Below, in pieces: positions 3,847 to 64,000 of a stretch of DNA of 64,000 bases (position 1 is the stretch's first letter; each line of letters opens with the position of its first letter). Made by a program: the position numbers and the translations under genes. The stretch spans positions 49,191 through 113,190 of the forward strand of contig CAWIIP010000001.1 in assembly GCA_963836235.1 (NCBI GenBank), given 5' to 3'. Source of the stretch: an uncultured Pseudomonadota bacterium (lineage in GTDB: Bacteria; Oederibacteriota; Muellerivitia; Muellerivitales; Muellerivitaceae). The notes beneath the pieces are model-generated. The model was not told the origin of the DNA and searched no databases. It was given only the letters and a program-made list of their open reading frames with translations.

Positions 3847-5427
3847 ATGCTTCCCGTACTCGCCACCATTTTGGTTCCTTTCGCAGCCATCTTTGCCCTT
3901 TTTTCTCAGGCTTCCGTCCATGGGCCGAATGTCTTGCCCCTCTTGACCACTTTTATCCTTATTCCCATTCTTTCCGCTTTTGCCATTATGGCCGCCCCCG
4001 AAAAATACACTCGTTGGATCAGTCTTTTTATGGCTTCCCTCGAATTGGGAGTTGCCTTCAAGGTCTTCGCTCTTTATCAAACCACCGTGGGTGGATTTCA
4101 ATTGGTGGAAGAAGTTCCCTGGCTGGGCAATTTTGGGATCAAATACCTTTTGGGCGTCGATGGAATGAGTACCTTGATGGTGTTTTTGGTCGGCTGCGTT
4201 TATTTCGCTGGGACACTCATTTCATGGAACGTCAGCCTCCGTAAAAAGGAATATTACGTCCTCTTTTCGCTTTTGGTCGGCGGAGTGGCCGGCGCTTATG
4301 AGAGCCTCGACTTGTTCTTCTTCTTCCTCTTTTACGAGTTCGCCGTTTTGCCCATGTACCTCCTGGTCGGAATCTGGGGATCGGGCCGTAAGGAATACGC
4401 GGCCATGAAGCTGACCCTTATGCTCTTGGCCGGGTCGGCCTTCATGCTGGTGGGCTTCATCGCCATGTACTTCACTTCCAATGTCCATACTTTCGACATC
4501 CGCGTATTAGGTGACCTGTCTAAAACTGGCTTTAGCCCCGATTTCCAAAACATTTGGTTTCCCCTCCTTTTCCTCGGTTTCGGAGTCATCGCGGCCGTTT
4601 TTCCCTTTCATACCTGGTCGCCTGATGGGTACGGTTCGGCTCCCACCGCCGCTTCCATGTTGCATGCGGGGGTTTTGAAGAGCCTGGGAGGATATAGCAT
4701 CATTCGGGTCGCATTGCCGGCCATGCCCTTAGGGGCAAAACACTGGCTTCCCATTCTGGTTCTTTTGACCCTGGTCAATATTCTCTACGCCGCCTTGGTT
4801 GCCTTAAAACAAAAGGACTTCAAGTATGTCATCGCTTATTCTTCCGTGTCTCATTGTGGCGCCATTCTTTTCGGCATTTGTACCCTCCAGGTCGCCGGTT
4901 TAAATGGGGCGGTCATCCAAACCCTTTCCCACGGAATCGTGGCGGCCATGACCTTCGCCTTAGTGGGGACGGTTTATGGCAAGGCCCACACGAGAGAACT
5001 AGCTAAGTTGGGCGGACTAGGAGCCTGCATGCCGGTTTTAGGCGGGCTTTTCGTGGCGGCGGCGATGGCCAACGTGGGATTACCCGGCTTAAGCGGTTTC
5101 GTGGGCGAGTTCCTTATTTTCCTGGGGTCCTACCGCAGCGGATACAACGGTGGATTCACGATCTTCCAAGTCCTTTTTCCCGTGGCCGTTCTAGCCATCG
5201 TCTTGACGGCTGTTTATTACCTTCGGCTTGTCCAAATGGTTTTTTATGGGCCTGTGAAGGATCCTCACTTTAAGGAAGAGGTTCATGATGGCACCTTCAT
5301 CGAAATTCTGCCGATCGCTTTTCTCCTGGCCGTTTCGCTCGCTGTGGGTTTATACCCGAAACCCTTTGTCGATATGTCCAACGCGACCATCGCGCCCTTG
5401 ATCGACTATATCGGAGGATTCAAGTGA
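3847..5427 (+). CDS. nuoM: NADH-quinone oxidoreductase subunit M
   Basis: 526-aa antiporter-like membrane subunit, NuoM/ND4-type; SD GGAGGAAA upstream. Confidence 0.88.
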   Translation: MLPVLATILVPFAAIFALFSQASVHGPNVLPLLTTFILIPILSAFAIMAAPEKYTRWISLFMASLELGVAFKVFALYQTTVGGFQLVEEVPWLGNFGIKYLLGVDGMSTLMVFLVGCVYFAGTLISWNVSLRKKEYYVLFSLLVGGVAGAYESLDLFFFFLFYEFAVLPMYLLVGIWGSGRKEYAAMKLTLMLLAGSAFMLVGFIAMYFTSNVHTFDIRVLGDLSKTGFSPDFQNIWFPLLFLGFGVIAAVFPFHTWSPDGYGSAPTAASMLHAGVLKSLGGYSIIRVALPAMPLGAKHWLPILVLLTLVNILYAALVALKQKDFKYVIAYSSVSHCGAILFGICTLQVAGLNGAVIQTLSHGIVAAMTFALVGTVYGKAHTRELAKLGGLGACMPVLGGLFVAAAMANVGLPGLSGFVGEFLIFLGSYRSGYNGGFTIFQVLFPVAVLAIVLTAVYYLRLVQMVFYGPVKDPHFKEEVHDGTFIEILPIAFLLAVSLAVGLYPKPFVDMSNATIAPLIDYIGGFK

Positions 5428-6893
5428 TCCAAGTTTCTTCTTTCCTGCCGGAGCTTTGGCTGGTGTGCACGGCCATACTGATCCTGCTGGTGGAATTGTT
5501 TTCGGAAAGCGACTCGACCCGCCGGATGCTGAATAGGATCGCGGTTTTAGGCGTCTTGGGCGCCTTGGTCACCCTGCCTTGCGTGGGGGGGCTTTGTTGT
5601 TCCGCGGCCTGTACATTGGGGTCCTTTCCGACGGAAGCCTTCAATGGTTTCCTTAAAACGGATGGCTTGGCGGCTTTTTTCAAGATGATCGTGTTGCTCG
5701 GCACGCTTCTGACCCTTTTCATCACCTTCCGCTACTTCAAAAGCCGGCCCACCCATTACCCGGCCGAATTCCTGGCCGTTCTTTTGTTTTCGGCGGCGGG
5801 GGCCTCGGCTTTGGCCTCGGCTCAGGAAATCATCACTCTTTACGTTTCGTTGGAAACCCTGACGATCAGCAGTTATTTACTGGCGTCTTTTATGAAAAAA
5901 GACAAGGGAAGTAACGAGGCGGGAATGAAATACCTATTGCTGGGGGCCTTTTCCTCCGCCATCCTTTTGCTGGGCTTCTCTTATATATATGGCCTGACCG
6001 GGACGACGGTTATCGCCCAAATCGGAAAAAGTCTGGCGGCCCAGCCTTTCTCGCCCATGCTGGCCCTGGCGATCATCTTGGTGACCGGCGGTTTGGGTTT
6101 CAAGATATCGCTGGCGCCCTTCCATATGTGGACGCCCGACGTTTACGAAGGAGCCCCGACTCCCGTGACGGCCTTTCTTTCCGTGGTTTCCAAAACGGCG
6201 GGATTCGCGGCTTTTGTCCGTATCTTCTGGGTAGGGCTCTCCAATTCCTCCGCCGCGCCGGTTTGGGCGGGACTTTTCGCGGTCCTGGCGGCGATGAGCA
6301 TTATCCTGGGCAATTTAGAAGCTATTCCCCAAAAAAACATCAAGCGCATGATGGCCTATTCCTCTATCGCCCAAGCTGGGTACATTTCAACGGGTTTCCT
6401 GGCGGGAGGGCAACTGGGCCTGACAGCGGTCCTCTTTTACCTCTTTGTCTATCTATTCGCCAACATGGGGGCCTTCCTGGCGATCGTGATTGTTTCCGGT
6501 AAAACAGGCAGCGACCAAATCGAGGATTTCGCCGGCATGTGGAAAAGATCCCCCCTGATAGGGGTTGTCCTGCTGGTATGCCTTCTTTCCCTCGCGGGAG
6601 TGCCGCCCTTCGCTGGTTTTTCGGGAAAGTGGTACTTATTCGGCGCCGCCATCCACATGGGGTACACTTGGCTGGCACTGGTGGGAATGGTTTTCAGCGT
6701 GGTATCCCTTTACTATTACCTGCAGGTGGTACGCCAGGCCCTGATGGTGGATGCCAAGGATTCCTCGCCCATCGAAATGAACCTTATCGAAAAAGTGATC
6801 TTGGTGGTCTGCATTGTTTCCACCGTTACCTTCGGTTTCTGGCCGACGCCCATCATGGATATGGCCCAAGCGGCTTCCACAGCCCTGTTTTAA
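5424..6893 (+). CDS. nuoN: NADH-quinone oxidoreductase subunit N
   Basis: 489-aa antiporter-like membrane subunit, last gene of the operon; GTG start overlaps nuoM stop. Confidence 0.88.
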   Translation: MIQVSSFLPELWLVCTAILILLVELFSESDSTRRMLNRIAVLGVLGALVTLPCVGGLCCSAACTLGSFPTEAFNGFLKTDGLAAFFKMIVLLGTLLTLFITFRYFKSRPTHYPAEFLAVLLFSAAGASALASAQEIITLYVSLETLTISSYLLASFMKKDKGSNEAGMKYLLLGAFSSAILLLGFSYIYGLTGTTVIAQIGKSLAAQPFSPMLALAIILVTGGLGFKISLAPFHMWTPDVYEGAPTPVTAFLSVVSKTAGFAAFVRIFWVGLSNSSAAPVWAGLFAVLAAMSIILGNLEAIPQKNIKRMMAYSSIAQAGYISTGFLAGGQLGLTAVLFYLFVYLFANMGAFLAIVIVSGKTGSDQIEDFAGMWKRSPLIGVVLLVCLLSLAGVPPFAGFSGKWYLFGAAIHMGYTWLALVGMVFSVVSLYYYLQVVRQALMVDAKDSSPIEMNLIEKVILVVCIVSTVTFGFWPTPIMDMAQAASTALF

Positions 6894-14817: not shown

Positions 14818-15920
14818 AATTGTTCCAACACCGGCTGGGATGGCGAGTTTTGGTGTTCCTGCTTTTAAGCCAGGCGGCTTTAGCGGACGTGGCTCCCATT
14901 TCCCTCACTTTTTTCGGCTTGTATGGAACGCCCGTCCAACCGGCGGCCTTATCCAGTTCCACGACGAATGGTTTTGGCCTTGACGCCTTAGGCGAGTGGA
15001 ACCCTTCCTATTATTTTTCCCTGGGCCTCAGTTTTGAGCAGGTCACTTTTTACAATTCGATCAATTTTTCCGTACCTATGTTCAATTTGGAAGGCCGGGT
15101 TTTCCCCTTTGAGAACGGGAAAGACAAGTTTTCACCTTATCTTTATGGCGGGGCGGGATTGGACCTCACCGACCCGGGCGGAGCGGCCCAGTTCAAGGCG
15201 GGTATCGGAAGCCGGGTTTCCATCGCAGGGCCTGTTTTCTTTGATATTGCCGCCGGCAGCCATTGGATCCAACCCCCGAACGAGTTTCAATATGTCGACG
15301 TCCGGGCGGGATTAAGCTGTTCCATCGATTTCAAACCAGCCGCCGCGAATTCCCCCACGCCGGCAGCGACTCCCGCCCTGGCTTCCCCCACGCCGCTCGC
15401 CCCAGCTTCCGGTACGCCCACCGTAATGGAGACGCCCACGGCCAGCCAGTCCCCGGAAGAGATCAGCCTGGAAGAGAGCACGACGCCTACCCCCATGCCC
15501 GTGATTGAAGCGGCGCCCGTGACCACCATCGCCGGGGTCAAAAAATACTACAAGTTGGGGATGCAGGCGTTTTTAGCCCAAAATTACAAACTGTCTTTCA
15601 AACTTTTGCATAAGTCTTTGGCCTCGAATGAAATCTTTGGCGCTTCTTATTATTACGCGGAAACTTACGCCACGCTTGGGGTGATCTATCAATTTCATTC
15701 CTCCAAGGTGAAGGATCACGATAAGAAAGCCTTGTTTTGCTACCAAAAGGCGCTGGCCATCGATCCAACAACGAAGTCGGCGAGACATTATTATAAGAAA
15801 CTCAAGGCGAAAATCGCAGCGGAGTCCAAAAAGAAACGCAGGCGCAAATCCGCACCAGTCCCGACTCCCACTGTCTCGGTTTCCACGGATACGAGTGGAT
15901 CGACGACCCCGACGCAATAA
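14814..15920 (+). CDS. Hypothetical secreted protein: beta-barrel-like N-domain + Pro/Thr-rich linker + C-terminal TPR-like domain (paralog B)
   Basis: Probable TTG start around 14814 giving signal peptide (M)KLFQHRLGWRVLVFLLLSQAALA; N-domain with alternating hydrophobic pattern (…YLYGGAGLDL…AGIGSRVSIAG…) consistent with a small outer-membrane beta-barrel; C-terminal …YYYAETYATLGVIYQFH… homologous to paralog A. Start uncertain (ORF track 14712). Confidence 0.5.
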   Translation: MKLFQHRLGWRVLVFLLLSQAALADVAPISLTFFGLYGTPVQPAALSSSTTNGFGLDALGEWNPSYYFSLGLSFEQVTFYNSINFSVPMFNLEGRVFPFENGKDKFSPYLYGGAGLDLTDPGGAAQFKAGIGSRVSIAGPVFFDIAAGSHWIQPPNEFQYVDVRAGLSCSIDFKPAAANSPTPAATPALASPTPLAPASGTPTVMETPTASQSPEEISLEESTTPTPMPVIEAAPVTTIAGVKKYYKLGMQAFLAQNYKLSFKLLHKSLASNEIFGASYYYAETYATLGVIYQFHSSKVKDHDKKALFCYQKALAIDPTTKSARHYYKKLKAKIAAESKKKRRRKSAPVPTPTVSVSTDTSGSTTPTQ

Positions 15921-16017
15921 TTCCAAATTTTTTTATTCAGCGGATTTATATTGGGTTTGTTTGACCAAAGGGTTCGCGTGCCTGCCCTATACCGGCAACA
16001 GATTCATTAGGATTTTT

Positions 16018-16368
16018 ATGAAAATTAATTTTGGAAGAACAATTAAATATATTTGGGTTTTCATAACTGTTTTGATTTACATGTGGTCTGTTTTTTCGGT
16101 ACCTTCGTATTCTGAAAGTATGCTTGTTTTGATGATTGGTTTAACTTATCCAATCAGTGCTTTGTCTTATTCCGGGTTATGCGAATTAAATGTTTTTATG
16201 GGGCATCAGTTTAATATGAAAAACCCTCCTTATTTTTTCTCTATAGCTTTTGATTGGTTTTTTCTTTTTGCTTTTGGATATTTGCAGTGGTTTATCTGTG
16301 TGCCATTTGTTTATCGCTTTTTTAAAAATTTGTTTAAGGACTATTTTTTATCTCGCAATAAACCTTGA
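16018..16368 (+). CDS. Hypothetical small hydrophobic protein in AT-rich islet
   Basis: ATG at 16018 (MKINFGRTIKYIWVFITVLIYMW…); strongly AT-rich codon usage unlike neighbours; 3-4 predicted TM segments; no recognisable family. ORF track starts at 15895. Confidence 0.35.
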   Translation: MKINFGRTIKYIWVFITVLIYMWSVFSVPSYSESMLVLMIGLTYPISALSYSGLCELNVFMGHQFNMKNPPYFFSIAFDWFFLFAFGYLQWFICVPFVYRFFKNLFKDYFLSRNKP

Positions 16369-54919: not shown

Positions 54920-55069
54920 GTTTGATCCTTAAAGGGAATTGAAAGAAGAATGGCTTAATTTAATGGTCCTTGGGTTATTTGTAAATGAAAGTCGGTCGAA
55001 CGAAAGAGGGTGTTGGGAAGCTTTTCGAGGGTATATTGGACGGATGTAATCCTAATCATTTTGTAATGG

Positions 55070-55558
55070 ATGGTTTTCTCGATGGGGTTGTTTAATTTTT
55101 TCTCTAAGCGAAAAATTTATGAAAATGCCAATCTTGAAAAAGTAATGATGGAAATGTCGCTTCGTCCGGTCATGAAAACAAGGCGAGTTTTATACGCGGA
55201 ATTATTGAAAAGCACTCTACTTCTTCCCACTCCCAGTCCATTGGAATCTTCTACATTCGAAACATCTTTAAAAGAGATTCAACTGGTGACCCAGCCTGGG
55301 CCCAAGAATGAGTTGGTTTGGATTGCCTTTACCAGTAAGGAGGCCCTTCGACAGTGGCGGCCTCAATTTGAGGATGCTTATGTAGCCATCCAAGGAACCC
55401 TTTTATTCGCGTTGGCGGTCCAAAACCGAGTGGAAAATATCTTGATCAATCTTGCGGGACCAGTGAGTGGGAAAATCACTGGAATGGAATTGCAAATGCT
55501 TGCGGAAGGGATTTTGCCGAGGGATGAGGACGGCAATACCAAAAACACTAAAGCCTAG
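55070..55558 (+). CDS. Hypothetical protein, SseB-like
   Basis: 162-aa soluble protein; pattern (…LLLPTPSP…ELVWIAFTSKEALRQW…) resembles the SseB N-terminal domain family; low confidence, from memory of the family only. Confidence 0.35.
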   Translation: MVFSMGLFNFFSKRKIYENANLEKVMMEMSLRPVMKTRRVLYAELLKSTLLLPTPSPLESSTFETSLKEIQLVTQPGPKNELVWIAFTSKEALRQWRPQFEDAYVAIQGTLLFALAVQNRVENILINLAGPVSGKITGMELQMLAEGILPRDEDGNTKNTKA

Positions 55559-55589
55559 GTTTTGTTGACTGGAAGCCGGTGGTTAAGGC

Positions 55590-56054
55590 TTAAGGAATGT
55601 AGACGACACCCGTCATGCCCGTGCAAGCGGCACTACAAACGCTGGTCCCGCAAGTTGGAGAATGAATACTACAGTGATAATGGTAGGTGCCGGCAGTTCC
55701 AAAAGGAACGGTTACGACAATTGAGCTGGACGCTGGAACCGTAATGCCTCCAGGAATACAAGTTCCCGTTCCGGCACCATTGTCGACATAAATTATATGC
55801 GAACTAAAACCAGTCGTATCCACGAAGGTAATGGAGCCGCCAGGCGCAATAGTAACGGCAGCGGGGTTAAAAGTATAAGTAGTGGTTCCGATCAGAGTGA
55901 CGCTTGTTGTTAGGGATGGAGTGGGTGTAGCAGGCCCGTATTGAACAGGATATTGAGGGCCGACCGTCGGGCAACCTAAAGAAAAAAGCGACATCATCGC
56001 GCATCCCGTGCAAAAAGCTAAAATAGATAGGCGTTTCATAATCACCTCACTCAA
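55590..56054 (-). CDS. Secreted/lipoprotein cupredoxin-like (type 1 copper) domain protein
   Basis: Signal peptide with Cys near cleavage region (…LFSLGC…); cupredoxin-like C-terminal ligand pattern …GTYHYHCSIHSP…GM…; Thr/Gly-rich beta-sandwich-like body. Confidence 0.4.
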   Translation of the reverse strand: MSEVIMKRLSILAFCTGCAMMSLFSLGCPTVGPQYPVQYGPATPTPSLTTSVTLIGTTTYTFNPAAVTIAPGGSITFVDTTGFSSHIIYVDNGAGTGTCIPGGITVPASSSIVVTVPFGTAGTYHYHCSIHSPTCGTSVCSAACTGMTGVVYIP

Positions 56055-56528
56055 GATAATGAATAATGGATTATCTTACTAAACCCTGGAAGGTTCAAGG
56101 AAGCCGTGAAAAAACTCACACATACGGCTGTTTTTATTTAATGTCTTAACTCAGTGCATTTTAACACCTTTGAAAATATCCAAACTTAGTTCTCGTGGTT
56201 CATTTGCGGTTGTTTTTATGGATGGAGAATGGTTTTAAAATCCCCTTAATTGAGTTGTCCTGTCAAAAGGAGGGGGCGTGTTGAAGTTTTTCCAAGTGTC
56301 TAATATGGGATAATTATTTTGGAAAATAGTATTAGATAAAAAAGTTTCAAAATTCCCGTTTTAAACATACAAAAAAATTCCTCGCAATTTGACCGCTTTG
56401 TTTGACCTGGCTTTGGTTTTACCGCTTGTTCTCCGATAACGTAGCCCTTACGATAGGGCCGAAATCGGTTATTTTCCCGCTTTGAATTTGAAATTGATTC
56501 ACTAAGTCTGCGCTATAAGGAGATTTTC

Positions 56529-57569
56529 TTGAAATCCACTAAATCCGTTACTTATAAATCCGCCGGTGTGAATATTGACGCGGGCAATGAAACTGTCAAC
56601 CGCATCAAAAAACAAGTCGCTTCAACATTCAATGAAAATGTCCTTTCCGATATCGGCCTTTTTGGCGGGTTGTTCGAATTCAAAGCCAAAAAGTACAAAA
56701 AACCGGTGTTTGTTTCTTCTACTGACGGGGTGGGAACCAAAATTCAAATCGGCGTTGCCATGAGGAGATACAAGGGTCTGGGGCGGGACATCGTGGGCCA
56801 TTCCATCAATGACATACTCGTGCAGGGAGCTAAACCCCTCTTTTTTCTTGATTACCTTGCGGCTGGAAAATTGGATCCAGCGGTGGTCGAAGAGATTGTT
56901 TCTGGAATGGCGGAAGAATGCCGGAAAGCAGGAGTTGCCCTTATTGGAGGGGAAACCGCTGAAATGCCCTCAGTTTACCGGGAAGGGGATTATGACATTG
57001 CGGGAACCATTGTTGGGGTGGTGGAAAAGAAAAAAATTATTCGGGGGGAAGAGGTGGAACCGGGAGACGTTTGCATCGGATTGCCATCTGTTTCCCTTCA
57101 CACCAACGGTTATTCCCTAGCCCGCAAAATTGTCTTGGACGTGGCGGGATTGAAGTACACCGACCGCGTACCTGAATTGAACGGAGTGATTGGAGACATC
57201 CTACTAACGCCCCATAAATCATATTTCCATGAAATCTACCCGATATTAGATGAAGTGAATATTAAGGCGATGGCCCACATTACGGGTGGAGGATTGATTG
57301 ATAACCCGCCGCGCGTGCTTCCGGAAGGTTGCCGTATCCGGTTTAAAGAAGGGTCCTGGAAGGTTTTGCCAATCATGGACTGGCTTGTTAAAAACGGAAA
57401 TGTTCCCAAGGAAGATGCCTACAGAACTTTCAATATGGGGTTAGGTATGGTGTTAATTGTGAGCCCAAAGAAGGTGGAAAAGGCTTTGAAAAAGCTCCGT
57501 AAGAATGGCGCTAATCCCGTGGTTGTCGGAGAGGTCATTGAGGGGAAAAAAGGCGTGGAATTCGTCTGA
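56529..57569 (+). CDS. purM: Phosphoribosylformylglycinamidine cyclo-ligase (AIR synthase)
   Basis: TTG start with SD AAGGAG; PurM N-terminus …YKSAGVNIDAGNE… and AIRS/AIRS_C domain pattern (…GVGTKIQI…); 346 aa. Confidence 0.88.
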   Translation: MKSTKSVTYKSAGVNIDAGNETVNRIKKQVASTFNENVLSDIGLFGGLFEFKAKKYKKPVFVSSTDGVGTKIQIGVAMRRYKGLGRDIVGHSINDILVQGAKPLFFLDYLAAGKLDPAVVEEIVSGMAEECRKAGVALIGGETAEMPSVYREGDYDIAGTIVGVVEKKKIIRGEEVEPGDVCIGLPSVSLHTNGYSLARKIVLDVAGLKYTDRVPELNGVIGDILLTPHKSYFHEIYPILDEVNIKAMAHITGGGLIDNPPRVLPEGCRIRFKEGSWKVLPIMDWLVKNGNVPKEDAYRTFNMGLGMVLIVSPKKVEKALKKLRKNGANPVVVGEVIEGKKGVEFV

Positions 57570-57647
57570 CTTCTATTCAATTTGGTGTGCCACAAGTCTT
57601 TAGCCTTTTTGAAAAGTCCGTGATCCGGTTCTCACCTGTGGAACTTT

Positions 57648-59687
57648 ATGGATGAAATAAAAAAAAGTTCGAATGGAATGCATGGGTGGATTTTGGCCTT
57701 GGAGCGGGCACCTCAGTTCCTTGCGGTTCTGCTAATTTTTATCCTGCCTTTCTTGACTCAATGGCAAGGTACCGACAAGCTTTTTCCAAAGTGGGCTATT
57801 ACCCAACTCCTGATATTACTCATGCTCAGCACCTGGGTCATCAAGGTGGCTATAACCGGGAAATTAACTTGGGTCTATTCCCGGGCTCATCTGATTTTGT
57901 TGATTCTGATGATTTGGATTGTCCTGACTTGTTTTCTTTCCCCCTATCCCCAAGCCGGTCTTTTAGCCATGCGGGACGATGTGGTTTATCCCCTTTGGTA
58001 CCTGCTATTGACCTTTACCTGTATCGAGCTTTGGCAGGCTGAAAACCTTTTAATCGTGTTACTTATTTCAGGGCTTGCGACGTGTCTTTGGGCTATAAGC
58101 CAGGCTCTGGGTCTGGGGACCGGGCCTTGGGAAACGCTAGTTAAAACTCAGTTTAGCGGAAGAGTCATCGCGGGGATGGGGAATCCGGACTTTCTGGCCG
58201 GCTATTTACTCATGATTTGGCCCCCGGTCCTTGCCCTCTTATTTCGGGCTGGGATGAAGTTTTCCAGGATTTTTTGGAGTTTTTTATTAATGGTCTGTCT
58301 TTTTGCCCTTTTATTCACGGGCAGTCAAACAGGATATTTGGGTTTTTTTGCGGGTGTATTGGTTTTTTCTTTTTTTAGTTTTAAAGACCAGGTGAAGGGT
58401 GCCTTCCCTTGGTTATTGGTCCTTTTGGGTTTTCTGACACTTTCTTTTTTCCTACCGCCTATGTCGGGACGGCTTCAGGAACTACTGAGTAAGAAAAGCG
58501 AAGTTTTCCCATTTCAAGAACAAGTTTGGTCGGGAACTTTGGACATGGTGAAGAAAAGTCCTATTTTCGGCGTTGGATACGGAGCCTTTGCGTCGGTTTT
58601 TCCCGCGCACCGGCCTGCTTGGCTGGGGCTTCACCAGGTTGAGAAAACGGATGGCGGAAATCATGCCTACAATTGGGTCTTGGAATGGACTGCCGAGACG
58701 GGTGTGGTTGGGTTATTGCTGTTGCTAGCTTTCTGGTTTTATGTTCTTGCCCAATGGTGGAGACTTTACAACGCCAATGCCATTCCCAAGGTTTTGGCGA
58801 TAGGTTTCTTCGCGGTAGTTTCGGGAGTGGCTGTTGATAACCTTTTTGAAGCGAACAGTTCTGAACCTTTCATCCTGATGCCGTTACTTTTCCTGGCGGC
58901 TTTCCCGGTTGCGCTTTCCCAAAGGTTTTATCGAATAGAAGGTTTCCCGGTCCGACTCAAAGAATTGAACCTTTCGAAATTCAAAGCCTTTCTTTTACCA
59001 TTGGCGGTTGTAATTATCTTTTTGGCGTTTTTTCAAATTGTGGATGTTTTTAAGCGCCAGGAAGCGGATATCCTTTGTGAAAAGGCGGCAGTTTCAACCC
59101 AATTAGGAAAATGGGATGAAGCTCTTGAGCTCTATACCCAGGCTTTAAAATTGGATCCATCGAACTTTGAAACCCGCTATTTACAGGGTTCGGTCTATCT
59201 GGACCGGGACAAAGAAGGAGACTTGGAGGCCGCATTGGCGGATTTTAACACCTTAGATCCGGTGGCTCCGGACTACCAGCTTATTCATTTCAAAAAATAT
59301 GAGGTTTTGAATTCCTTGAAACGAGAGGAAGAAGCCAAAACCGAATTAAAACGCGCCGTTCGTTTGGACTCGACGCTGATTTATCTCTTGGATGATTTCA
59401 AAAAGGCGAGACAACTCACCGCGAGCGACCATCTTTCCGAAGCATTAGTCGTTTATCAAGGGTTGATTTTAGATTATCCTACCTGCGTTCCGATGTTGAT
59501 TGACTACGCCAACTGCCTCGCCTTATCCCAAGATTACGAGTCGGCTATCAATCTTTATCGAAGCGTATTAGTCTTGGATCCTGGAAACGTTAAAGCCTCC
59601 GACGACCTTCAGAAGGTGCAAGAGATTACGCTGAGAGCCCAAGAGTTGAATCGTCCCAAAGCAAATGTTCTGGGAAGCGAATTGTAA
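57648..59687 (+). CDS. O-antigen ligase/polymerase-like polytopic membrane protein with C-terminal TPR repeats
   Basis: About 10 predicted TM helices with Wzy_C-like segment (…LLFTGSQTGYLGFFAG…); C-terminal about 200 aa soluble TPR-like repeats (…ALELYTQALKLDPSNFETRYLQGSVY…). Confidence 0.55.
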   Translation: MDEIKKSSNGMHGWILALERAPQFLAVLLIFILPFLTQWQGTDKLFPKWAITQLLILLMLSTWVIKVAITGKLTWVYSRAHLILLILMIWIVLTCFLSPYPQAGLLAMRDDVVYPLWYLLLTFTCIELWQAENLLIVLLISGLATCLWAISQALGLGTGPWETLVKTQFSGRVIAGMGNPDFLAGYLLMIWPPVLALLFRAGMKFSRIFWSFLLMVCLFALLFTGSQTGYLGFFAGVLVFSFFSFKDQVKGAFPWLLVLLGFLTLSFFLPPMSGRLQELLSKKSEVFPFQEQVWSGTLDMVKKSPIFGVGYGAFASVFPAHRPAWLGLHQVEKTDGGNHAYNWVLEWTAETGVVGLLLLLAFWFYVLAQWWRLYNANAIPKVLAIGFFAVVSGVAVDNLFEANSSEPFILMPLLFLAAFPVALSQRFYRIEGFPVRLKELNLSKFKAFLLPLAVVIIFLAFFQIVDVFKRQEADILCEKAAVSTQLGKWDEALELYTQALKLDPSNFETRYLQGSVYLDRDKEGDLEAALADFNTLDPVAPDYQLIHFKKYEVLNSLKREEEAKTELKRAVRLDSTLIYLLDDFKKARQLTASDHLSEALVVYQGLILDYPTCVPMLIDYANCLALSQDYESAINLYRSVLVLDPGNVKASDDLQKVQEITLRAQELNRPKANVLGSEL

Positions 59688-59710
59688 GGTAAAAGTTCAG
59701 GAGCTTTTTT

Positions 59711-60334
59711 TTGATTAAAATAGCTATATTTGCTTCAGGGGGCGGCTCAAACCTTCAGGCACTGATCGATGGGCAAGATACGGGGCTTTTTAAGGGTAAA
59801 ATCGGTCTGGTTTTCTCCAATGTGCCGGAATCGGGGGCCATGGAACGGGCCGAGAACCAGCGTATCGAATCCGTCGCCATTGCCAGCAAAGGATATCCGG
59901 GGAGTCGGGAAGAGTACGACCGGGAAGTTTTGGAACTTTGCCAACACAAGAAAATTGACCTGATTTGCCTTGCCGGGTATATGCGAATCCTGACGCCGGT
60001 TTTGATCAAACCCTATTTGTATAAGGTGATGAATATCCACCCAGCCCTCCTGCCGAAATTTGGTGGGGAAGGTATGTATGGTCACCATGTGCATGAGGCG
60101 GTGATTAAAGCGAAAGAAAAAGAATCGGGCGCCACAGTGCATTTTGTGACCGAGGGGGTGGATGCGGGCCCTATTATCCTACAAGGAAATGTAAGGGTTT
60201 TGCCCAATGACACGACTCAAACCCTGGCTGAAAAGGTTTTAAAAGTGGAGCATCATCTTTACCCGGAAGCGGTTCGGTTGTTTTGTGCGGGGAAAATTAA
60301 AGTAAGTGACGGACGAGTGAAAATATTGCCTTAA
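59711..60334 (+). CDS. purN: Phosphoribosylglycinamide formyltransferase
   Basis: N-terminus (M)IKIAIFASGGGSNLQALID; catalytic region …MNIHPALLPKFGG…H…; 207 aa; TTG start with SD AGGAG. Confidence 0.88.
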   Translation: MIKIAIFASGGGSNLQALIDGQDTGLFKGKIGLVFSNVPESGAMERAENQRIESVAIASKGYPGSREEYDREVLELCQHKKIDLICLAGYMRILTPVLIKPYLYKVMNIHPALLPKFGGEGMYGHHVHEAVIKAKEKESGATVHFVTEGVDAGPIILQGNVRVLPNDTTQTLAEKVLKVEHHLYPEAVRLFCAGKIKVSDGRVKILP

Positions 60335-60344
60335 AAGGTGTCCT

Positions 60345-60896
60345 GTGAAAGAAACCCCGTTGTTACCGCAGATTATTAAAACTTCTAAATCTGCAAGGTT
60401 ATTTGGTGGAATTGGGTCTGCGATTTTGATTTTCTTTATATTCCTTATCCCTTTGTTTGCATTGAAACCGCTTGGTTTAAATGACCTTTTGATGGTCGCT
60501 TTTGGCCTTTGTTCTTTGGCTTTATTACTTTTGCTGAAATGTTTTCAAAGTGTTCATTGTTCAGAAGAAGGGCTGGAGTTTTTTAAACTTATTTTTAAAA
60601 CAAAGAAAATATTATGGGATGAAATAGAGAAAGCGGAATTTGTTCGAAAAACAGGTTCTTATCAACTGACCTTTTATCCATATTCCATTATAAAATTTAC
60701 TGTTAAAGATGGTGGAAGTTTTGAATTGGTAAACAGCATTTTTTTTAACTTGAAGGATGTTTTGATCATTTGCGATTTGTTGAAAATGAAAGCGTTTAAT
60801 GCTGATGTGAATATCGATTCAAAGATGGTGGCGAAAGAGTTTGTTGTTGAAAAAAATTATGGAAATGGTGAGAGAAAATGTCTGAAGACAAAGTGA
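60345..60896 (+). CDS. Hypothetical membrane protein (2 TM + PH-like soluble domain), AT-rich orphan
   Basis: AT-rich codon usage unlike flanking pur genes; two N-terminal TM helices then about 110-aa domain resembling bacterial PH (YdbT-like) folds; overlaps purH start by 19 nt. Confidence 0.4.
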   Translation: MKETPLLPQIIKTSKSARLFGGIGSAILIFFIFLIPLFALKPLGLNDLLMVAFGLCSLALLLLLKCFQSVHCSEEGLEFFKLIFKTKKILWDEIEKAEFVRKTGSYQLTFYPYSIIKFTVKDGGSFELVNSIFFNLKDVLIICDLLKMKAFNADVNIDSKMVAKEFVVEKNYGNGERKCLKTK

Positions 60897-62452
60897 AAAT
60901 TAAAAGAGCGTTATTGAGCGTTTCGGACAAAACGGGATTGATTGATTTTGCCAAGCAATTGGTTGGACACGGGGCGGAGCTCATTTCAACAGGGGGAACC
61001 GCCAAAGCTATTAAGAACGCTGGTTTGGCCGTGAAGGATATTTCTGAAGTCACTGGTTTTCCCGAAATGTTGGACGGCCGGGTGAAGACCCTGCATCCAG
61101 TGGTACATGGCGGCCTCCTGTCTCTTCGCGACAATAAAGAACACATGGAAACCATCGCCAAACACAATATAAAGCCTATCGACTTGGTTTGTGTGAACCT
61201 CTATCCTTTCGAAGCTACGATTTCTAAACCCAACGTCGAACTCCACGAGGCCATTGAGAACATAGATATTGGCGGCCCGTCCATGATCCGCTCAGCGTCT
61301 AAAAACTACCGAAGTGTCACCGTGGTGACTTCGGCCTCCCAATACGCGGCGGTGGTCCGGGAAATGACTGAAAATAATGGGGCGACCACGTTTAAACTGC
61401 GGCAGGAACTGGCCATTGAGGCTTTTGGTAACACGGCCCGTTATGACGGAACCATTCATGAATACCTGCACCGCCGCCTTTCCGAAAAGAAATGGCCGGA
61501 TATCTTCACGATATCGGGGTTGAAAGTCCAAGAAATGCGTTACGGAGAGAATCCCCATCAGCCGGCAGCCTTTTATAAAGACCGCAATAATGCTTTGCCG
61601 ACTATCGCCAATGGCAAACAGTTGCAGGGCAAGGAACTTTCCTACAACAACATCATGGATGCGGACGCGGCCCTAGCCTTGGTGAAAGAATTTGACGATC
61701 CAGCCGCTACAATCATCAAACACACGAATCCATGTGGAACAGCCATTGGTACGGATGTTGCGGAAGCCTTTGCCAAGGCCTTCGCTTCGGATTCCTTATC
61801 CGCTTTTGGGGGCATCGTGGCGGTCAACCGTCCGGTCACCGAAAATACAGCCAAGATGATTTTAGAGAAGCTGAGCTTTTTCGAGATTATGCTGGCACCG
61901 TCCTACGACGAAGGGGTTTTGAAGGCTTTCGAAGCACGGAAAAACTTGAGGGTCATGTCGGTGGAAGGTTTGGGCAGATCGAAAGAAATCATCCCCGGTT
62001 ACCATGTGCGCCGGGTGGAAGGCGGCTTCCTGGTACAAGATTTCGACCAGGCGGTGGAGGATAAGGCCCAATTTAAGGTCGTGACCCAGGCACATCCTGA
62101 TCCGAAACTGGCTAAAGACATGGATTTCGGTTGGAAACTGGTGAAGCATGTGAAGTCTAACGGTATCGTTCTGGTCAAGAATGGGGTTTCCATTGGAGTT
62201 GGCGCCGGCCAGATGAACCGGGTCGGATCTTTGGAAATTGCCATCAAACAGGCGGGAGATATGGCCAAGGGAAGTGTGATGGCGTCCGACGCCTTATTAC
62301 CCTTCCGGGATAGCGTGGATGCCTGTGCCAAGGCGGGAGTGGCGGCGATTATTCAAACCGGGGGAAGCGTGAGAGATGGGGAAGTCATCGAGGCCGCCAA
62401 CCAGCATGGGATTCCAATGATTTTTACAACTTATCGGCATTTCAAGCATTAA
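60878..62452 (+). CDS. purH: Bifunctional AICAR transformylase / IMP cyclohydrolase
   Basis: MGS-like N-domain (…ALLSVSDKTGL…ISTGGTAK…) and AICARFT domain; 524 aa. Confidence 0.9.
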   Translation: MSEDKVKIKRALLSVSDKTGLIDFAKQLVGHGAELISTGGTAKAIKNAGLAVKDISEVTGFPEMLDGRVKTLHPVVHGGLLSLRDNKEHMETIAKHNIKPIDLVCVNLYPFEATISKPNVELHEAIENIDIGGPSMIRSASKNYRSVTVVTSASQYAAVVREMTENNGATTFKLRQELAIEAFGNTARYDGTIHEYLHRRLSEKKWPDIFTISGLKVQEMRYGENPHQPAAFYKDRNNALPTIANGKQLQGKELSYNNIMDADAALALVKEFDDPAATIIKHTNPCGTAIGTDVAEAFAKAFASDSLSAFGGIVAVNRPVTENTAKMILEKLSFFEIMLAPSYDEGVLKAFEARKNLRVMSVEGLGRSKEIIPGYHVRRVEGGFLVQDFDQAVEDKAQFKVVTQAHPDPKLAKDMDFGWKLVKHVKSNGIVLVKNGVSIGVGAGQMNRVGSLEIAIKQAGDMAKGSVMASDALLPFRDSVDACAKAGVAAIIQTGGSVRDGEVIEAANQHGIPMIFTTYRHFKH

Positions 62453-62482
62453 CAATAGAACCTAACTTGTTTGGAGGTTGGC

Positions 62483-63760
62483 TTGGATATTTTGGTTGTT
62501 GGTTCGGGTGGCCGGGAGCATGCCATGTGCTGGGCGCTTTCCAAATCCATTAGAAAACCCAAACTCTATTGCGCCCCGGGAAACGCCGGAATCGCCCAAT
62601 TGGCCGAATGCCTGGATATCTTGGCAGATGACATTCCCTCACTAGTGAAATGGGTAAAAGATCACGATCCCCATTTAGTTGTGATCGGCCCAGAAGTTCC
62701 CCTTTGCATGGGTTTGGCGGATGAGCTTTTAAAGGAAGGTTTCCAGGTTTTCGGACCCACCAAAGATGGAGCCCAAATGGAGGGAAGTAAGGATTTCGCC
62801 AAGAGGATTCTCCTGGATAACCATATTCCCACCGCAAAAGCCCAGACCTTTACCGACTATAAAAAAGCCTTAACCTATTTGCGAGCCCAAGGGGCGCCGA
62901 TTGTCATCAAGGCAGACGGATTGGCCGCCGGCAAAGGGGTGACGGTTTGCGAAACGCTTCCACAAGCCGAGGCGGCTTTAGAAGAATCCATGAAGAAGAA
63001 AGTTTTCGGCGATGCGGGTTCAAAAGTCGTCATTGAAGAATTTTTAGAAGGCGAAGAGGCCTCGATTCTCGCTTTTGTTGACGGAGAAACGATAGTGCCC
63101 ATGGTGAGCGCCCAGGACCATAAACGTGTCTTTGACGGCGACCAGGGGCCTAATACGGGCGGTATGGGGTCCTATTCACCCGCTCCAGTTGTTACGGAGA
63201 AACTAAATGAGGAGATACTAGAGAAAATTCTGAAGCCCACCGTAGCCGCGTTGAAACGCTTGGGAATCATCTATAAGGGCGTTTTGTACGCCGGGCTAAT
63301 GATCACAAAAGAGGGGCCCAAAGTGATCGAGTACAACTGTCGTTTTGGCGATCCCGAAACCCAAGTGGTTTTACCCCGTTTGAAAACCGATTTTGTGAAT
63401 ATATGCATGGCGGTAGCCCAAGGTAAACTCTCCCACCTGAAAGTTGAGTGGAACGAAGAGCAAGCGGCTTGCGTAGTGATGGCCTCGCAGGGATATCCAA
63501 GTTCTTACCCCAAAGGAAAAGTCATTGAAGGCCTTGAAAAAGCAGCCCAAAACCCTGATACCTATGTTTTCCATGCTGGAACCGCGTTGGAAGGCGGCAA
63601 AGTGGTGACATCGGGTGGTCGGGTACTATGTGTGACGGGTGTGGGAAAGACCCTCCAGAAGGCCATCGAAAAGGCTTATGGGGCGGTAAAGGAAATTCGG
63701 TTTGACGGAGCCCATTACCGTAAAGACATCGCTTGGCGTGCCTTGAAAAGCAATCGTTAG
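62483..63760 (+). CDS. purD: Phosphoribosylamine--glycine ligase
   Basis: Probable TTG start 62483 (SD GGAGG) giving (M)DILVVGSGGREHA…; ATP-grasp fold; ORF track starts at 62471. Confidence 0.88.
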   Translation: MDILVVGSGGREHAMCWALSKSIRKPKLYCAPGNAGIAQLAECLDILADDIPSLVKWVKDHDPHLVVIGPEVPLCMGLADELLKEGFQVFGPTKDGAQMEGSKDFAKRILLDNHIPTAKAQTFTDYKKALTYLRAQGAPIVIKADGLAAGKGVTVCETLPQAEAALEESMKKKVFGDAGSKVVIEEFLEGEEASILAFVDGETIVPMVSAQDHKRVFDGDQGPNTGGMGSYSPAPVVTEKLNEEILEKILKPTVAALKRLGIIYKGVLYAGLMITKEGPKVIEYNCRFGDPETQVVLPRLKTDFVNICMAVAQGKLSHLKVEWNEEQAACVVMASQGYPSSYPKGKVIEGLEKAAQNPDTYVFHAGTALEGGKVVTSGGRVLCVTGVGKTLQKAIEKAYGAVKEIRFDGAHYRKDIAWRALKSNR

Positions 63761-64000
63761 TCATCACATCTAAAATACATTAAATAGTTTTAGGATTTGG
63801 CAGAAGCTTTGCTTTATCGCGCTTGAACCATGAAAATTTTCAGTTTTTGTGCTGAAAAATCCATATTTCTTTGAGAAGATTAAACCAAGGCTAGATATGT
63901 TGATCGAGAAAGCGTACTTTTGACGAATGGAAAAAAACATGAGTGAACAAACCAATCTCAAATCATTGCCTTATTCCCCGGCCAACTTGTCGCAAGTTGC

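Follow-up and report, generated by a model that had tools for sequence, protein, structure and literature searches.

A small gene for a predicted membrane-anchored PH-type protein at the variable purN-purH junction of FCPU426 bacteria

The 64-kb stretch of DNA analysed here (the window) comes from an uncultured soil bacterium, which the relatives of its purH place in the candidate phylum FCPU426. It carries a small AT-rich gene between purN and purH, which we call the slot gene. This gene is real but dispensable: an old, clade-specific passenger of the purine operon that has often been lost and has possibly been exchanged between lineages. The reading that we favour, with moderate confidence, is that of an accessory gene confined to one clade, deleted there time and again and perhaps also exchanged, which encodes a membrane-anchored protein of the bacterial PH type and would be expressed by way of the pur operon. 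We describe the locus first, then the predicted protein, its relatives at the same junction, and the other histories that could have produced this pattern.

The slot gene and its setting in the pur operon

Neighbouring genes were assigned by Pfam. The features to which the text refers are listed below, in window coordinates.

56529-57569: purM (Pfam)
57648-59687: Wzy_C/TPR membrane protein (O-antigen-ligase-like, with TPR repeats), between purM and purN (Pfam)
59711..60334, + strand: purN, the upstream flank (Pfam Formyl_trans_N, E 3e-48)
60332..60340, + strand: purN stop codon TAA (60332-60334), then the SD-like motif AAGGTG (60335-60340), read from the sequence
60345..60896, + strand: slot gene, an ORF of 183 aa with a GTG start and a TGA stop (60894-60896); predicted 2TM hairpin and PH-like cytoplasmic domain
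60369..60380, + strand: predicted N-terminal beta-strand, residues 9-12 (LPQI), from DSSP on the model and family alignments
60387..60542, + strand: predicted TM hairpin, TM1 (residues 15-38) and TM2 (45-66) with a 7-residue loop, from AlphaFold and hydropathy
60546..60791, + strand: predicted PH-like beta-sandwich, six strands within residues 68-130 and a capping helix, 136-149
60792..60893, + strand: C-terminal tail, the conserved motif NAD(V/I)N(I/L)D and then about 25 residues particular to this genome, from alignment and model
60867..60896, + strand: purH ribosome-binding region inside the slot-gene 3' end, with GGTGAGAG at 60867-60874, the purH ATG at 60878 and a 19-nt overlap at 60878-60896
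60878..62452, + strand: purH, the downstream flank (Pfam MGS and AICARFT_IMPCHas, E 3e-113)
62471-63760: purD (Pfam)

The initial annotation had reported a 183-aa ORF that overlaps the start of purH by 19 nt. The ORF is confirmed on the + strand, and the overlap is exact. The purH start at 60878 is itself supported by alignment, as the purH of relatives begins MAEDKVKIKRAL... The annotation had also placed the gene within a conserved pur run. It does lie between purN and purH with purD downstream, but the run is not purely one of pur genes, with the Wzy_C/TPR gene standing between purM and purN.

The slot gene is tightly fitted to both of its neighbours. It begins 10 nt after the end of purN, with 4 nt between the AAGGTG motif and its GTG. 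At the other end its TGA falls 19 nt into purH, so that the purH SD motif is embedded in the slot-gene 3' end. Across eight occupied loci the upstream gap is 9-19 nt and the downstream distance -19 to +40 nt, each with an SD-like motif (the upstream gap of L116 could not be measured), and the AT-rich homologs have their stop codon 1-24 nt ahead of purH. Because the slot-gene SD directly follows the purN stop, and the purH SD and start lie in the slot-gene 3' end, we infer translational coupling, together with co-transcription with the pur operon by read-through. A promoter or terminator belonging to the slot gene was considered and rejected, since promoter- and terminator-like sites around it are as frequent as in shuffled sequence, and no + strand promoter-like site lies within it. 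A riboswitch or small RNA was also discarded: an Rfam scan of 55000-64000, made with particular regard to a ZTP/pfl motif ahead of purH, returned no such element and only a chance match to SpR10 (E 0.3). From this anatomy the slot gene would have neither promoter nor terminator of its own, be transcribed within the pur operon and be translated by coupling. It would ride on a constitutively needed operon, and by analogy its role would be something other than a step in purine synthesis.

The composition of the gene sets it apart from its surroundings. Its GC content is 0.33 (0.38, 0.29 and 0.32 at the three codon positions), compared with 0.49 for purN (GC3 0.51) and 0.51 for purH (GC3 0.58). 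When the window is divided into its 48 non-overlapping ORFs of 100 aa or more, GC content averages 0.503 (sd 0.051) and the slot gene comes last, some 3.5 sd under that average; among 552-nt windows, no more than 0.4 % reach the same AT-richness. The AT-rich codon usage first noted for the gene is borne out, and it recurs in every lineage with an AT-rich slot gene, GC3 being 0.26-0.38 in these genes and 0.51-0.74 in the host flanks.

Relatives of the slot protein are few. A word-indexed search across 5.8 billion proteins returned nothing but the slot protein itself; when 1.84 billion representatives were scanned exhaustively with HMMER, five more proteins came to light, with identities of 26-30 %, and a profile search then added a few further members. 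The two billion-scale searches bring the family to about ten members. The exact protein is present on only two contigs. Eight other FCPU426-type contigs carry AT-rich homologs (24-35 % identity) in the same purN-purH slot, and the distant family members P0004-P0006 adjoin unrelated genes. The gene had been called an orphan, and near-orphan describes it better: it has about ten relatives in searches of this scale and is missing from its closest relatives, but homologs do exist in the same slot. That it is unrelated to the purine enzymes was correct, as no enzyme family matched.

The ten family sequences share an N-terminal (I/L)PW, two hydrophobic helices, an invariant Cys within a V.C..(E/D)G motif, W..I, and a C-terminal NA.(I/V)N. 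Nei-Gojobori omega values for four independent homolog pairs are 0.36, 0.21, 0.25 and 0.25; their bootstrap intervals all stay under 0.6, and pN reached pS in none of 500 codon bootstraps. By these sequence measures, the slot ORF is a genuine protein-coding gene. Within the window, profiles of the AT-rich family and of the STM3941 type (discussed below) match nothing besides the slot gene itself. Searches for mobile or defence cargo were likewise negative, with no hits from PADLOC or PHROGs, no tblastn match to phage and plasmid collections, and nothing significant in BFVD. The boundaries of the insert carry no flanking mobility repeats beyond a duplicated GGTG SD motif.

A predicted membrane hairpin with a PH-like domain

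Two TM helices and a PH-like soluble domain had been proposed for the protein, and Kyte-Doolittle hydropathy, AlphaFold and Foldseek all support them. With the 10-sequence alignment AlphaFold gave a model of pLDDT 79 and pTM 0.67; from the single sequence alone the model was poor (pLDDT 47). The order of elements in the alignment-based model is a strand, the two hairpin helices, the six strands, the capping helix, a further helix (159-173) and a disordered tail. Hydropathy places its peaks at residues 22-40 and 48-66, followed by about 117 soluble residues. The N-terminus has four K/R against one D/E, and under the positive-inside rule the predicted topology is N-in/C-in, with the 7-residue loop outside and the PH-like domain in the cytoplasm.

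The LPQI strand corresponds to the conserved (I/L)PW motif of the family. Although it precedes the TM helices, its predicted partner is the sheet behind them, and such pairing would give a PH-like domain split by the hairpin. The predicted fold has the features of the PH superfold, a beta-sandwich of about seven strands with a C-terminal amphipathic capping helix. Within the domain, C72 is invariant across the family, and W91 and I94 are nearly so. In the C-terminal tail, which runs into purH, the last 10 residues have a pLDDT below 50. Foldseek with the model matched Pob3N (E 4e-3) and also listed the bacterial PH protein 3b77; against BFVD it gave nothing significant. If the model is right, the slot protein would be an N-in/C-in hairpin of the inner membrane that carries a cytoplasmic PH-like sandwich, one strand of it ahead of the hairpin and six, with the capping helix, behind.

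This architecture is a known one among bacteria. The 2TM PHb families have an intracellular PHb domain after two TM helices, and Xu et al. (2010, PMC2817789) proposed that they oligomerise to cap membrane complexes. The membrane-anchored PHb proteins (DUF1200/DUF2244, YdbS/YdbT and DdE/DdF) share with the slot-protein model the two TM helices and the helix-capped, intracellular PH-like sandwich. The two differ in strand beta1, which is seemingly missing from the 2TM PHb families (Xu et al. 2010, PMC2817789), whereas the model of the slot protein places a short strand ahead of the TM hairpin. None of the Pfam bPH models (bPH_1 to bPH_6) matched any of eight family members at E <= 1, the sole PH-related line being FERM_C in one member (E 0.45). 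By analogy with these families, the slot protein might serve some membrane complex from the cytoplasmic side, as a module for protein interaction or oligomerisation.

EROS/CYBC1 (PDB 8kei chain D), the eukaryotic, ER-resident chaperone of NOX2, may resemble the model in architecture as well. Its sequence identity with the slot protein is 9 %, and neither the single sequence nor the family profile matched EROS or any other PDB entry. Such a resemblance may be convergent.

The junction across FCPU426 and the kinship of the slot gene

A comparison of the purN-purH spacing in related genomes was suggested at the outset, and we extended it to 13 related genomes, six related metagenome contigs reached through purN relatives, and the contigs that encode family members. 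The FCPU426 junction exists in at least six states. In the tight state purN and purH are 11-37 nt apart with a single T(G/A)A-GGTGA-n-ATG (L001, L002, L004, L007, L009, L010, L023, L036, L037 and L038). The AT-rich 2TM/PH-like gene occupies the junction in the window and in L003, L027, L011, L028/L029, L035, L030 and L039, which spread over at least four FCPU426 sublineages or crown branches. A third state, found in two deeper branches (L040 and L116/P0012), is a canonical member of the STM3941 family with near-normal GC; L116 has only the purH side on its contig, and the two share their downstream synteny. The remaining states are an unrelated G/K-rich secreted ORF (L005), an IS110 transposase directly 3' of purN (L061), and a 220-nt non-coding spacer (L006 and L008). 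A MITE in this spacer was considered and rejected, since the repeat search found nothing in L006 and only one 19-nt pair, 79 % complementary, in L008. An apparent frameshift in the purH of L011 proved to be a masked run of N.

The gene is thus missing from the closest relatives of the window (L009 and L036, purH 91 %), in which the junction measures 12-13 nt, but homologs fill the same slot in at least four sublineages. An insertion unique to this genome, as first supposed, does not hold. The finding that was to refute it, the same gene at this position in distant relatives, was made within FCPU426; it was not made in other phyla. All members of the basal clade (L007, L010 and L037) have the tight junction, and in L007 and L010, where the upstream region is available, the Wzy_C/TPR gene is absent as well.

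NJ trees of purH and purN place unlike junctions side by side. Supported pairings that differ in the state of the slot include the window with L009 and L036 (98 %), L011 with L005 (93 %), L116 with L004 (88 %) and L040 with L006 and L008 (97 %), and for almost all occupied lineages the trees give a well-supported sister in which the slot is empty or differently filled. Decayed remnants of the gene were sought in the gaps of L004, L005, L006 and L008, and only chance-level tblastn and blastn matches appeared.

In all other phyla sampled, the slot gene is absent, and the junction is either empty or filled by purC or a GNAT gene. From reading the translations, purC is the insert in L053 and L058. 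L059 carries a GNAT acetyltransferase, a member of a large known family; L070 and L078 have near-identical ORFs, and L084 has a more divergent ORF of similar size. Given such inserts, it is no rarity as such for purN and purH to be separated by a non-pur gene. The claim that a small, unrelated membrane gene is unusual in this operon therefore needs narrowing: extra genes at the junction are seen elsewhere, but they have normal GC, and none is a small, AT-rich membrane protein.

The nearest named relative of the slot protein is the STM3941 family (NF041635). The only paper found on STM3941 describes an indole-induced 'putative inner membrane protein' (PMC3405474). The slot protein matches NF041635 with 18.1 bits (E 0.002) over model positions 9-102 of 157, short of the curated cutoff of 40 bits, while L040, as a positive control, scores 84.8 bits. 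Among eight members of the AT-rich family only one matches NF041635 at E <= 1. An hhalign comparison of the AT-rich family with the alignment of canonical members gave a probability of 55 % (E 1.2e-4, 47 columns) for a region that covers the first PH strands and the W.EIE motif, the shared stretch reading 'SxEG ... W.EIE'; HMM-versus-sequence scores in both directions lay within the range of shuffled controls. The check by structure prediction and remote homology that was proposed with the first description recovers a PH-like fold and, in sequence, a match below threshold. Because the curated cutoff is missed, one member in eight matches, and scores fall within the shuffled range, we do not file the slot protein as a member of NF041635.

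The layout of the proteins and the position of their genes nevertheless connect them. STM3941 proteins and the slot protein share a layout of about 160 aa, with two N-terminal TM helices (predicted for L040 and P0012) ahead of a C-terminal domain that is soluble and about 100 aa long, and the canonical members L040 and P0012/L116 occupy the very slot of the AT-rich family in related FCPU426 genomes. This agreement in architecture, slot and clade, together with the sub-threshold NF041635 match and the hhalign match, leads us to regard the AT-rich family as probably a strongly diverged offshoot of an STM3941-type slot gene. The two forms differ at residue 72, an invariant Cys in the AT-rich family and Ser in the canonical members, and in composition, with a GC3 of about 0.3 in the AT-rich slot genes and 0.62-0.72 in the canonical ones. 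They do not differ in constraint: omega of the canonical slot genes is about 0.25, and that of the AT-rich genes is no higher. Relaxed selection therefore does not account for the persistently low GC3, and recent import does not account for it either, since no donors were found in the phage and plasmid collections.

Passenger, exchanged cassette or functional partner

The slot gene evolves quickly by comparison with its neighbours. Its dN exceeds that of purN and purH by 3-7x within sublineages and by 7-10x between them, and these ratios are compatible with long residence at the junction, fast evolution and many deletions. The history that we favour would begin with a 2TM/PH-type gene of the STM3941 kind, which entered the purN-purH junction after the basal clade had split off. 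It would then have diverged strongly and turned AT-rich in the crown lineages, where it would have been deleted many times, and where recombination in the conserved flanks may have carried it from one lineage to another.

The last of these steps is suggested by one genome in particular. The flanks of L028 are as close to the window as those of L009 (purN 92 %, the purH N-terminus 96 % and the upstream gene 88 %). Its slot gene, however, matches that of the more distant L011 far better (60 % identity) than that of the window (33 %), the window and L011 genes being 35 % identical. Simple vertical descent is contradicted by this pairing of window-like flanks with an L011-type gene. The pattern would fit cassette exchange, long-lived allelic lineages, or a burst of change on the window branch.

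Taken further, exchange could be the whole of the matter. The junction might be a hot spot at which small genes are swapped among FCPU426 lineages by homologous recombination in the flanks, and the window gene might be one allele of a diversifying set, for example with a function in immunity, exclusion or envelope conflict, in place of a vertical passenger. We regard this as possible but rather unlikely. In its favour, nearly equidistant flanks enclose three states of the slot, namely the window-type gene, an empty junction (L009/L036) and the L011-type gene (L028), and the slot contents within this one clade, at least six, include the IS110 transposase and the G/K-rich secreted ORF. All alleles share the atypical GC3, and membrane PHb proteins of the YdbT type, DdE/DdF, have been implicated in bacteriocin export (PMC8657885). 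The pS between the L011 and L028 slot genes (0.60) is also lower than that of the adjacent purN (0.76), a comparison that is confounded by composition-dependent saturation. On the other hand, omega values of 0.2-0.36 speak of purifying and not diversifying selection within allele types, and the three identities (33 %, 35 % and 60 %) would also follow from a burst on the window branch alone. The lack of flanking repeats other than the duplicated GGTG, and of matches in the defence, phage and plasmid libraries, weighs against exchange as well.

A stronger form of the same idea, which we consider improbable, would make the junction a dedicated expression slot in which the PH-like family diversifies and is exchanged, its GC3 of about 0.3 held by selection or by unusual mutation, with a role in conflict or at the envelope. 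By analogy, the family might then serve in immunity, in exclusion, or in an EROS-like chaperoning of a variable membrane client, drawing on the transcription of an essential operon.

A functional partnership with purine synthesis has a lower probability still. Here the PH-like domain would act at the membrane to tether or regulate PurN/PurH or the Wzy_C/TPR protein, and this would account for the constant position of the gene and for its translational coupling. Protein interaction is what PH folds serve as modules (PMC2817789), and two sequence-distinct forms have been at the same position for long (purH dS is saturated between lineages), in tight coupling to both neighbours. The clade with slot genes is moreover the clade in which the operon has the Wzy_C/TPR gene, L007 and L010 being without both. 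Against such a partnership, the slot gene has been lost repeatedly while purN, purH and the Wzy_C/TPR gene stayed intact (L001, L002, L004, L009, L023, L036 and L038), it evolves 3-10x faster than its supposed partners, and the distant members P0004-P0006 have unrelated genes as neighbours. By the standard of a core gene of the purine operon, it matches no enzyme family and is absent from the basal FCPU426 clade, the closest relatives and all other phyla sampled. Since the gene is repeatedly lost beside intact pur genes and absent outside the clade, a direct role in purine synthesis is unlikely.

The first interpretation, a recent insertion of a horizontally acquired AT-rich orphan into the intact operon of this one genome, now has very little probability. 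The AT-richness of the gene extends to each of the three codon positions, L009 and L036 are without it, and the exact protein occurs on two contigs only, as such an insertion would have it. However, at least four other sublineages have same-slot homologs, and deeper branches have an STM3941-family protein with the same architecture by TM prediction. Searches of phage, plasmid and BFVD collections found neither mobile-element signatures nor donors, and the slot gene outpaces its flanks by similar factors between lineages (about 7-10x) and within them (3-7x).

That the ORF is a chance reading frame in an AT-rich spacer or in a regulatory leader (riboswitch or internal promoter) can be dismissed almost entirely, for while it has no Pfam match and a poor single-sequence model, and stop-free stretches do occur in AT-rich DNA by chance, if few, four homolog pairs have an omega significantly lower than 1, architecture and motifs persist across 10 sequences at 24-35 % identity, the alignment-based model is confident, Rfam (with the ZTP riboswitch in mind) gives no match, and promoter-like sites are not in excess.

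We therefore return to the clade-restricted passenger gene as the reading to be carried forward. It adds one very small, previously unnamed sequence family, from an uncultured phylum, to the bacterial membrane-anchored PH-like proteins; the fast-evolving family is new, while its architectural kind, the 2TM-PHb, was already known. Its interest is modest and mainly evolutionary, and lies in the variability of the slot, the anomalous composition and the possible exchange of cassettes. A junction inside an essential biosynthetic operon is here a variable slot, sometimes empty and sometimes filled by a 2TM gene in one of its two forms, by an IS element or by an ORF unrelated to these. The passenger evolves several times faster than its neighbours and keeps its anomalous base composition throughout. 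If cassette exchange is true, the locus would offer a simple natural model for accessory genes that parasitise the expression of an operon, and for a composition maintained against the host background. If the junction is in addition a dedicated expression slot, it would be a chromosomal hypervariable cassette system that operates without integrase or repeats.

Small AT-rich ORFs and distant family members

Within the window, a single other ORF matches the AT-richness of the PH-like gene with two transmembrane (TM) helices that occupies the purN-purH junction:

window 15895-16368, + strand: ORF of 157 aa, GC 0.33, GC3 0.34

Its product is hydrophobic and multi-TM-like, no Pfam match was found for these 157 aa, and it is flanked by a gene for a TPR/beta-barrel-like protein on one side and a glycoside-hydrolase-like gene on the other. 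It may represent a second small AT-rich membrane 'orphan'. More distant members of the junction gene's family (P0004, P0005 and P0006) have unrelated genes as neighbors:

L031 (contig carrying P0004) 597-2399: surroundings of the P0004 gene

Here the P0004 gene is followed by a small AT-leaning ORF (158 aa, GC 0.39, weak DUF6703 match), and a MazE/PIN toxin-antitoxin pair also lies downstream. An alpha/beta-hydrolase gene is found downstream of the P0005 gene and a melibiase gene downstream of that for P0006. Of these three genes, only that for P0005 shows a clear AT-shift (GC 0.36 versus 0.54 in its neighbor).

Variable contents of the purN-purH junction

Some FCPU426 relatives carry something else at this junction:

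L061 (FCPU426-type metagenome contig) 435-1508, + strand: IS110-family transposase (NF033542, 223 bits)
L005 (sister lineage of L011) 5378-5869, + strand: ORF of 163 aa, unrelated to the AT-rich gene
L006 and L008 (two relatives) 5781-6000: non-coding purN-purH spacer of 220 nt

In the one contig L061, the transposase adjoins the 3' side of purN, at the place where purH is expected, a further case of this junction serving as an insertion site. The L005 ORF, with a normal GC of 0.54, encodes a signal-peptide-like N-terminus followed by a Gly/Lys-rich low-complexity body for which no family match was found. The spacer is conserved between L006 and L008 and holds neither an ORF nor a remnant of the AT-rich gene. 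Inverted repeats occur in it only in L008; they are imperfect, with 79% complementarity between arms of 19 nt.

In six members of other phyla, the interval measures approximately 850-1190 nt and also contains a gene. This looks like purC in L053 and L058 from translations read by eye only, while L059, L070, L078 and L084 have a GNAT-like ORF of approximately 270-300 aa. Both Pfam and NCBIfam assign the L059 ORF to the GNAT-family acetyltransferases, and its counterparts in L070 and L078 are almost identical in sequence. The L084 ORF is more divergent and a putative member of this group. Such an extra gene is therefore not unique to FCPU426.

Membrane-protein genes gained by the pur operon

Two further features lie at the upstream end of the operon:

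window 55950-56550: AT-rich intergenic region of approximately 470 nt, 5' of purM, GC 0.34-0.38
window 57648-59687, + strand: Wzy_C/O-antigen-ligase-like gene, 679 aa, between purM and purN

The former is likely the promoter region of the operon; Rfam found no purine or ZTP riboswitch there at E <= 1. The latter encodes a polytopic membrane protein with TPR repeats at its C-terminal end. Outside the basal clade, where purN directly follows purM (L007 and L010), every FCPU426 relative examined carries this gene. Four relatives (L001, L003, L004 and L023) have a second paralog, 25% identical, just 5' of the first. With this gene and the AT-rich gene both inside it, the pur operon of the FCPU426 clade has therefore gained two membrane-protein genes.
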